NCBI GenBank assembly: GCA_000004695.1
Contig: CM000153.2
Span: forward strand, 4,992,001 to 5,056,000
DNA: 64,000 nt
Reading direction: 5' to 3'
Origin: Dictyostelium discoideum
Taxonomy: Eukaryota
Position 1 is the stretch's first letter. Each line of letters begins with the position of its first letter. The position numbers were made by a program, and so were the translations under genes. This document shows positions 26,337-26,897 of this stretch, in pieces. The notes beneath the pieces are model-generated. The model had not been told where the DNA came from and searched no databases. It worked only from the letters and a program-made list of their open reading frames with translations.

Positions 26337-26897
26337 TTAGTTTTTATAATAATTTAATAATTCAATGTAAGGATTACCAGTTATATTTAATAATTTTGCA
26401 AAAGCAGGTTCAGTTTTTAAACCAAACTTTTTTAAATTTATAATATCATTTTTAAATGATTCACCTTTTTCAAAAAGGATTTGATATTCAATTATCATAT
26501 GTCTATAAGCATTTTGTTGTTTTGTTGGTATATTTTGACAAAATATTTCAAATTGGAAACCATCGATTTCAAATTCAGAGAAAATAGTTTCAACACCATT
26601 TACAATATGATTTTTTTTTATTTTAAAATCTTTATAACTTGAAAAGTTTTTCTCTATTGTTGAAATTAATTTCTCTTTATTATTATCATCATCATGATCT
26701 TTCCAACAACAACAAATGTCTAAATCTGAACCTATTATATCAATTTCAATTGGTATTGTACCTGCTAAAATTGGTTCAAACTCTTTTAAAATTTCTATAA
26801 TTTTATTTTCTTTTAATATTTTATATGCATTCTTTTGAACTTGATTCGAACTTTCCTCATTTAAATATTCGATATTATTGAATTTATAAATATCCAT
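26337..26897 (-). CDS. Intronless 186-aa protein resembling the bacterial DUF4269 / nucleotidyltransferase-fold family
   Basis: True ATG. Motifs EPILAGTIPIEIDIIGSDLDICCC (a GS…DxD nucleotidyltransferase-like signature), QNAYRHMIIEYQIL, GLKTEPAFAKLL and GNPYIELL match my recollection of bacterial DUF4269 proteins. I know no eukaryotic domain that fits better. Confidence 0.45.
   Translation of the reverse strand: MDIYKFNNIEYLNEESSNQVQKNAYKILKENKIIEILKEFEPILAGTIPIEIDIIGSDLDICCCWKDHDDDNNKEKLISTIEKNFSSYKDFKIKKNHIVNGVETIFSEFEIDGFQFEIFCQNIPTKQQNAYRHMIIEYQILFEKGESFKNDIINLKKFGLKTEPAFAKLLNITGNPYIELLNYYKN

Follow-up and report, generated by a model that had tools for sequence, protein, structure and literature searches.

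Where does a short gene without introns, lying between two large surface-protein genes of a social amoeba, come from, and what could its product do? The gene sits in a window of 64,000 nucleotides of Dictyostelium discoideum (i.e., the whole stretch of DNA analysed). A sequence-only reading of this window had taken it for an intronless gene of bacterial appearance, related to DUF4269 and to minimal nucleotidyltransferases, and a candidate for horizontal transfer. The joint explanation that best accounts for our results, and to which we give a probability of about 0.8, is a domesticated Bacteroidota gene. Its product would be a cytosolic, stand-alone nucleotidyltransferase (NTase) of two domains, for which a small molecule or a nucleotide derivative is the favoured acceptor.

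The gene and the DUF4269 family

The coding sequence and the putative signals around it are as follows.

26337..26897, minus strand: complete, intronless coding sequence of DDB_G0286879, 186 codons and a TAA stop (open reading frame, Pfam PF14091 match, AlphaFold2 model)
26328..26333, minus strand: AATAAA, a polyadenylation-type signal 3 nt past the stop codon, in a flank of 14% GC; a poly(A) role is suggested by sequence
26898..27239, no strand: divergent intergenic region of 342 bp and 17% GC, common to the ComC-like gene upstream; presumed promoter region

The frame is uninterrupted from ATG to TAA and an intronless gene is indeed present where the sequence-only reading had placed it, on the minus strand, which that reading had not given. 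With the base composition of the window (GC ~20%), an open frame of 186 codons has a probability of ~2e-8 per start; because only ~0.003 such frames are expected per whole window, it is not a chance feature. The product is a 100% match to D. discoideum AX4 DDB_G0286879 (XP_637502.1, Q54L61), which carries the public label "DUF4269 domain-containing protein" (UniProt Q54L61). We found no mention of the gene in the searchable literature.

The protein matches the Pfam family PF14091 (DUF4269) with E = 1.5e-57 and 194.6 bits, for a cut-off of 28.9. The match covers the full domain (profile positions 1-151 of 151, over residues 26-183), and DUF4269 is the sole family reported by a Pfam search at E <= 1. 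With 186 aa, the protein also has the size expected of the family (~170-190 aa; its homologues measure 170-185 aa). At the sequence level, DDB_G0286879 is thus unambiguously a bona fide DUF4269 member, as had been proposed from its motifs. A search of NCBIfam with the same protein returned no family, and PDB sequence searches, run once with the protein alone and once with a profile of 120 sequences, gave no real match; the matches to NUP120 (E = 0.25) were rejected as chance.

The family is large. At 90% identity, 2514 clusters of relatives were counted with the single query and 5118 with a profile built from Dictyostelium only (E threshold 1e-3, in a collection of 5.8 billion proteins, the best 120 of each being listed), and at 50% identity the family comprises 931 clusters, each with its representative. 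Moreover, when prokaryotes were scanned with one genome for each species, at least 580 species genomes (Bacteroidota) had a relative. DUF4269 occurs in Bacteroidota, Bacillota, Alphaproteobacteria and Cyanobacteria, with distant members in Bacillus (45% identity) and in Azospirillum and Rhizobium (~30%), the member of Synechocystis being slr1148 (PMC9845703).

Predicted fold, active site and acceptor

The structure of DDB_G0286879 was modelled with AlphaFold2 from a 120-sequence alignment (pLDDT 95.7, pTM 0.89). The model runs from a helix (19-30) through a strand (43-45), a loop and a second strand (59-64) to a helix (73-85), strands 89-99, 102-111 and 114-121, and four helices (129-182). A Foldseek search of this model against the PDB returned terminal uridylyltransferases (TUTases), Cid1, GLD-2 and poly(A) polymerases (PAPs) (E ~1e-4, TM ~0.5), and the fold matches overall belong to TUTases, PAPs and CD-NTases. 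RNA-tailing enzymes are the best structural neighbours of the protein. At the sequence level, a few diverse DUF4269 members weakly match MTPAP-like_central (3e-4) and NTP_transf_2 (1.6e-3). Structure prediction, fold search and these weak matches all agree with the nucleotidyltransferase fold proposed earlier: the model has the alpha/beta NTase core of the Pol-beta-like superfamily, and by predicted fold and motif DDB_G0286879 is a member of the Pol-beta nucleotidyltransferase superfamily. Three elements of the coding sequence carry this assignment and the putative active site.

26718..26762, minus strand: codons G46-D60 (GTIPIEIDIIGSDLD), putative nucleotide/metal-binding motif G-[ST]-x9-S-D-x-D (alignments, strand-loop-strand, fold matches)
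26547..26549, minus strand: codon E117, candidate third catalytic carboxylate, on the fifth beta-strand (114-121), motif F-E-I-F
26340..26513, minus strand: C-terminal four-helix domain, codons ~129-186, with the blocks QNAYRHM (Q128, H133), E137, K156 and K161-T-E-P-A-F

Residues G46, T47, P49, S57, D58 and D60 do not vary in the 120 close homologues, and across 150 diverse representatives (33-54% identity) their conservation is 90% or more. The same holds for E117, located on model strand 114-121, which by analogy with the topology of Pol-beta-type NTases would be the third catalytic carboxylate. The segment A-G46-T47-x9-S57-D58-L-D60-I conforms to the superfamily signature hG[GS]-x9-13-[DE]h[DE]h, with Thr in place of Ser/Gly at the second position. 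The sequence-only reading had proposed a "GS…DxD" signature, of which the DxD part (D58-x-D60) stands; the glycine motif, on the other hand, is G46-T47, ~10 residues upstream, and not G56-S57. Indeed, the alignments show that S57 is conserved and that G56 is not. In the helical domain, presumably the one that binds the base or the acceptor, Q128, H133, E137, K156 and K161-T-E-P-A-F are at least 90% conserved across the 150 representatives. T162, E163 and F166 are further family-conserved residues, and all listed conserved residues are present in DDB_G0286879. The four peptide motifs quoted by the sequence-only reading all lie in the translation and correspond to the most conserved blocks of the family.

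These features suggest the following mechanism. The protein would work in the cytosol as a stand-alone enzyme, with its alpha/beta catalytic core at the N-terminus and a domain of four helices at the C-terminus. G46-T47 and S57 would grip the triphosphate of the NTP, while D58, D60 and E117 would coordinate two Mg2+ ions. The helical domain would hold the acceptor through Q128, H133, E137, K156 and K161-T-E, and the NMP would be moved from the NTP to a hydroxyl of the acceptor, with release of pyrophosphate.

Bacterial gene neighbourhoods and domain fusions bear differently on the nature of this acceptor. In 80 Bacteroidota loci, the gene neighbours are heterogeneous and housekeeping-like, and there is no universal operon partner. 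A PMT_2 glycosyltransferase gene overlaps the start of the DUF4269 gene in 19 of the 80 (Flavobacterium) and ileS-traR-lspA lies upstream in 14 of the 80 (Sphingobacteriia). Among the immediate neighbours scanned in Bacteroidota, DUF1456 and SAM methyltransferases were each found in 6 of 57. Given this heterogeneity, operon context was rejected as a basis for function.

Fused DUF4269 proteins are a minority (~20 of 150 representatives). Among the long representatives scanned, the partners are GNAT (5, on either side), YecM/VOC-fold (6) and HAD (2) domains, along with an APH-type kinase, HIT, NUDIX, DinB_2, nucleoside 2-deoxyribosyltransferase (Nuc_deoxyrib_tr), low-molecular-weight phosphatase (LMWPc) and 5-formyl-THF (5-FTHF) cyclo-ligase. 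Several of these architectures were met again, at unchanged length, in independent samples. For GNAT-DUF4269 there are, for instance, 10 members drawn from four sources, and a Marinifilum MAG contains the deoxyribosyltransferase fusion. In two loci (L082 and L088), GNAT genes directly adjoin unfused or fused DUF4269 genes, and one YecM fusion has genes for a 2OG-Fe(II) oxygenase and an MFS transporter after it. Some Flavobacterium homologues bear the name "diadenosine tetraphosphate hydrolase", which was rejected as a clue to function and has probably spread from HIT-domain fusions.

The substrates of all these partners are small molecules, nucleotides or nucleotide adducts, and no scanned representative carries a fused RNA-binding domain. 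For this reason, a small molecule or a nucleotide derivative is the acceptor that we favour over RNA 3' tailing and second-messenger synthesis. This choice, drawn from association, is a tentative one whose chances we put a little short of even. Such an acceptor would go with the modification of xenobiotics or antibiotics, or with metabolite repair.

The rival that survives best keeps the same horizontal origin and makes the protein a minimal RNA 3'-terminal nucleotidyltransferase, either similar to TUTases and non-canonical poly(A) polymerases or, like MenT, modifying tRNA. We consider it unlikely. The fold matches at TM ~0.5 indicate the superfamily and not the substrate; the protein is half the size of a TUTase, shares 9-17% identity with these enzymes, and gives no PAP_assoc or NTP_transf_2 match of its own (Pfam, E up to 1). 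Among its relatives, only 1-2 of 150 have matches to TUTase or PAP models, below threshold. To this are added the fusions described above, in which the scanned representatives join DUF4269 to small-molecule and nucleotide enzymes only, and the 80 bacterial loci, beside which no toxin-antitoxin or defence context was seen.

A second rival would see in the protein a minimal cGAS/DncV-like enzyme (CD-NTase) or a pyrophosphokinase of (p)ppGpp-synthetase type, producing a nucleotide second messenger. This is quite improbable. Neither DDB_G0286879 nor two bacterial homologues matched any PADLOC defence model, those for CBASS included, and no CBASS effector or Cap genes were seen beside the bacterial homologues in the 80 loci, whose context resembles that of core genes and not a defence island. 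Moreover, the protein, at 175-186 aa, is far smaller than CD-NTases, which measure ~300 aa.

Origin and residence in the amoeba genome

The distribution of DUF4269 points to Bacteroidota as the source of the gene. Among the matches listed (the best 120 per search), eukaryotes are represented by three strains of D. discoideum and by D. purpureum alone, and these matches show no sign of the broad eukaryotic presence that would speak against a transfer. The D. purpureum orthologue, whose existence the sequence-only reading had left to be checked, is DICPUDRAFT_86401; it shares 60% identity with DDB_G0286879 and is intronless. The bacterial matches listed with a named source all come from Bacteroidota, at 49-58% identity (57-58% for the nearest homologue), and include Flavobacterium, Pedobacter, Dyadobacter, Mucilaginibacter, Siphonobacter and Zobellia. 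Likewise, the best GTDB species-representative loci are all from Bacteroidota, in several classes (80/80, the best 80 of at least 580). The family as a whole is overwhelmingly bacterial, and the nearest relatives of the amoeba gene belong to Bacteroidota, the group from which the sequence-only reading took the family to be mostly known. With the Dictyostelium-only profile, the two amoeba proteins score 390 and 336 bits and the next best sequences, bacterial or metagenomic, 223. No DUF4269 member was found in phage GenBank records, IMG/VR viral contigs or BFVD viral structures, and a viral vector is therefore without support. In the plasmid collection, DUF4269 matches are confined to large non-mobilizable replicons and chromids.

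Trees were built by neighbour-joining (NJ) on 173-174 columns, using Kimura-corrected distances and 100 bootstraps, the sequences from the plasmid collection serving as outgroups. The two amoebae form a clade in 97/100 bootstraps of the unrooted set and in 94/100 with outgroups. In the NJ tree rooted on Alphaproteobacteria, this clade lies 15 nodes deep among Bacteroidota, and a monophyly of Bacteroidota excluding Dictyostelium appears in 0/100 bootstraps. Its best sister is a group of some marine Flavobacteriaceae, at 45-48% support, on an NJ backbone that is poorly supported. The horizontal-transfer proposal is hence upheld by NJ nesting, and the sequences indicate a single transfer from a Bacteroidota donor before the split of D. 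discoideum and D. purpureum. Indeed, since D. purpureum has an orthologue, the acquisition would precede the radiation of group 4.

Could the gene instead be an ancient eukaryotic or amoebozoan one, inherited vertically and lost nearly everywhere else, or have passed from amoeba to bacteria? It is true that its identity to the nearest bacterial homologue about equals that to D. purpureum, and the corresponding distances from D. discoideum are similar (0.56 and 0.54). However, this explanation would have to set two closely related amoebae against thousands of bacterial members, the gene is intronless in both amoebae, and their clade is nested deep in Bacteroidota, with no bootstrap for the alternative. 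We regard it as very improbable.

The other aspect of the origin is the residence of the gene in the host chromosome, which its neighbours document.

21005..25726, minus strand: downstream neighbour, a 1573-aa extracellular/transmembrane protein (DUF7034, DUF7743, Teneurin-like EGF, poly-N tracts)
27240..34256, plus strand: upstream neighbour(s), divergent, with a signal-peptide exon, an EGF_TEN/ComC beta-sandwich at 29138-30826 and an S/T/G-rich repeat tail at 33.3-34.2 kb

The gene does lie between two large surface-protein genes, as noted from the sequence: both encode extracellular proteins of EGF-repeat/ComC type with poly-N tracts. The downstream one is typical amoeba host DNA, and the upstream ComC-like gene has its ATG at 27240. 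The D. purpureum orthologue is found on a 137-kb contig among eukaryotic genes, with a divergent ComC-like gene upstream that is collinear with the upstream neighbour here (window 29.6-33.7 kb). Synteny between the two species is limited to this upstream ComC-like side and is not conserved downstream. The ComC-like genes form a multi-copy family. No tRNA genes, looked for as integration landmarks, were found near DDB_G0286879.

In composition, the gene is that of its host. Its GC is 21% and its GC3 10.7%, against means of 35.6% and 34% in bacterial homologues, while the GC3 of a neighbouring host gene is 7%; the codon usage is thus fully AT-adapted, as had been claimed. The flanks (14-17% GC) contain long A/T runs. 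DDB_G0286879 is physically integrated in the host chromosome. The statement that it holds no low-complexity insert, on the other hand, must be corrected, for a small insertion of Dictyostelium type interrupts the family alignment.

26679..26696, minus strand: D/N-rich insertion HDDDNN, codons 68-73 (alignments; lowest pLDDT of the model, block 61-70 = 84)

Bacterial homologues lack this insert, D. purpureum has a shorter one, and among D. discoideum strains its length varies; the N-terminus also has a 2-residue insertion relative to bacterial members. In three D. discoideum assemblies the alleles encode 186, 185 and 184 aa with an intact frame, and their differences are confined to non-conserved positions and to the length of the insert. 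Between D. discoideum and D. purpureum, dN is 0.25 and dS ~1.5 (near saturation), i.e., a dN/dS of ~0.16. All 24 family-conserved residues are kept, save for a conservative K161R in D. purpureum.

Bacterial food DNA commonly contaminates amoeba assemblies, but bacterial contamination, like a decaying and non-functional relic of transfer, is hardly credible here. The gene has a GC3 of 10.7% and is set in typical Dictyostelium DNA; three D. discoideum assemblies carry it, as does D. purpureum, where the locus is partly collinear; and it is intact throughout, with a dN/dS of ~0.16 and its catalytic residues kept. Host composition, neighbours, the D. purpureum orthologue and selection together make contamination, a decaying relic and vertical inheritance all unlikely.

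The history that we propose for the domesticated Bacteroidota gene is thus one event, in which the ancestor of D. discoideum and D. purpureum would have gained a DUF4269 gene from a Bacteroidota donor, presumably a typical prey of soil amoebae. The gene would have entered the nuclear genome between genes for ComC-like surface proteins. Since then it has taken on the codon usage of its host, acquired putative host expression signals along with the small D/N-rich insert, and been retained under purifying selection.

This makes DDB_G0286879 a well-supported addition to the brief and often-cited catalogue of domesticated bacterial genes in social amoebae; its timing agrees with that of the genes listed, and it points to a donor among Bacteroidota, probably prey. 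No concept is changed, since the domain label was already public and horizontal gene transfer (HGT) into Dictyostelium is well established. Being intronless, present in one copy and found in a model organism for which knockout libraries exist, it offers a tractable entry to the function of the large DUF4269 family, for which the fold and the intact catalytic motif predict nucleotidyl transfer. A bolder extension, possible but doubtful, would see in DUF4269 a large family of miniature enzymes, similar to TUTases and CD-NTases, whose acceptor would be of a novel kind (a nucleotide adduct or a small molecule) and would be processed alongside GNAT, YecM, HIT or NUDIX partners. Group-4 Dictyostelium would have taken such an enzyme from its prey for chemical defence or metabolite repair, e.g., to nucleotidylate a bacterial antibiotic or toxin. 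If this were true, the amoeba would be the first system for assigning a function to DUF4269.

Comparison with known systems

The bacterial PF14091 members are the closest relatives of DDB_G0286879, matching it over their full length at 49-58% identity, with all motifs kept and equal length apart from the 6-residue insert. What sets the amoeba gene apart is its place in a eukaryotic nucleus, its host codons, flanks and signals, its D/N-rich insert and its lack of a fused partner.

Beyond its own family, DDB_G0286879 differs from each of the better-known groups that share its predicted fold. Compared with TUTases and PAPs (Cid1, TUT7/TUT4, GLD-2, PAPD1) and with CD-NTases (DncV, CdnE), it is about half the size and only 9-17% identical. 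The MNT of HEPN-MNT pairs is a single domain of ~100-130 aa, whereas DDB_G0286879 has an extra C-terminal helical domain. No HEPN partner was found among the neighbour families scanned in bacterial loci; together with the PADLOC result, this means that the term "minimal nucleotidyltransferase" used by the sequence-only reading is not to be taken for the MNT antitoxin family. According to the fold search, the C-terminal helical domain resembles those of TUTases, CD-NTases and GrpB. GrpB (PF04229; PDB 2nrk; also the C-terminal domain of mycobacterial CoaE, 6n39) is nevertheless a separate Pfam family with 8% identity, and no sequence-level relation to it was detected.

ANT/Lnu enzymes provide another parallel: they are small, combine the NTase fold with a helical domain at the C-terminus, and nucleotidylate hydroxyls of small molecules. 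DDB_G0286879 has neither a match to an ANT/Lnu family model nor a close structural similarity to these enzymes. Since the defining models or contexts are lacking in each case, it falls outside the TUTase/PAP, CD-NTase, MNT-HEPN and ANT families. Resistance enzymes of ANT/Lnu type occur fused with GNAT or APH (ANT-AAC, AAC-APH), and some DUF4269 proteins are fused with GNAT or APH in the manner of such bifunctional enzymes.

As for genes of the same history, an earlier list of bacterial-to-Dictyostelium HGT candidates is reportedly that of Eichinger et al. in 2005, and the published set is said to number 16-18. The later list holds 16 bacterium-to-Dictyostelium candidates, all dated before the split of D. 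discoideum and D. purpureum (Sucgang et al. 2011, PMC3188802), and neither DDB_G0286879 nor DUF4269 appears in its 16 genes (Table 2). With the published Dictyostelium genes of this kind (IptA, ThyA, PscA, Ppk1, and DUF885, DUF1121, DUF1289 and DUF1294), DDB_G0286879 nonetheless shares the same features, i.e., a bacterial domain, nesting among bacteria and an orthologue in D. purpureum.

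The DUF4269 gene and its flanks

The gene of bacterial origin and its surroundings carry three local sequence features, and a fourth lies towards the right end of the window:

26679-26696, minus strand: codons of the HDDDNN insert in the DUF4269 protein
about 26941-26960, intergenic (region 26898-27239): short GC-rich island cggccaatacggc, with CCAAT inside
33333-34170, plus strand: tandem repeats with units of 33 nt and 27 nt, at the 3' end of an ORF
58966-63894, minus strand: 1642-aa ORF with little besides poly-Q, PTPQQ and poly-N tracts

Comparison of three D. discoideum assemblies, in which the protein measures 186, 185 and 184 aa, showed that the HDDDNN insert is length-polymorphic; it is a small triplet-repeat-type expansion within a gene of bacterial origin. 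The GC-rich island may be a promoter element. The divergent intergenic DNA around it, which separates the DUF4269 and ComC-like genes, is nearly pure A/T.

Repeats and base composition

In an ORF without a Pfam match, the 33-nt and 27-nt repeats specify a mucin-like tail rich in Ser, Thr and Gly (TTGPSTTHAAS..., SGQSTGGQ...), and they account for a block of 42% GC; elsewhere the window has about 20% GC. At the window's right end, the strongly positive GC skew (+0.4 to +0.6) is due to the 1642-aa ORF, which is interrupted at about 61.2-61.3 kb by an assembly gap, seen as a stretch of N.

Bacterial relatives: gene contexts, names and a second family

In bacteria, DUF4269 is recurrently tied to GNAT acetyltransferases, by N-terminal fusion, by C-terminal fusion, or as neighbouring genes 0-10 bp apart. 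Coordinates are those within each bacterial locus:

L082, 3857-4825; L088, 5521-6972; L087, 6001-7616: linkage to GNAT or YecM
L085, 1321-4730: distant alphaproteobacterial DUF4269 gene

One YecM-DUF4269 fusion gene overlaps the gene of a 2OG-Fe(II) oxygenase and has an MFS transporter gene beside it; together, these linkages possibly represent small-molecule pathway modules. Among the contexts seen, the only mobile-element-like one is L085, on the 667-kb replicon p3 of Azospirillum brasilense, where a VapBC toxin-antitoxin pair lies on one side of the gene and an IS5 transposase on the other.

Some plain DUF4269 proteins (such as P0064 and P0143, from Flavobacterium sp. Root901 and F. hibernum) bear the database name 'diadenosine tetraphosphate hydrolase'. 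This is likely a misannotation, the label having probably spread from DUF4269-HIT fusions such as P0291. Lastly, 7 of the 150 diverse DUF4269 representatives gave weak matches (best E = 1.7e-4) to DUF7277, another uncharacterised Pfam family, which suggests an unrecorded relationship between the two.
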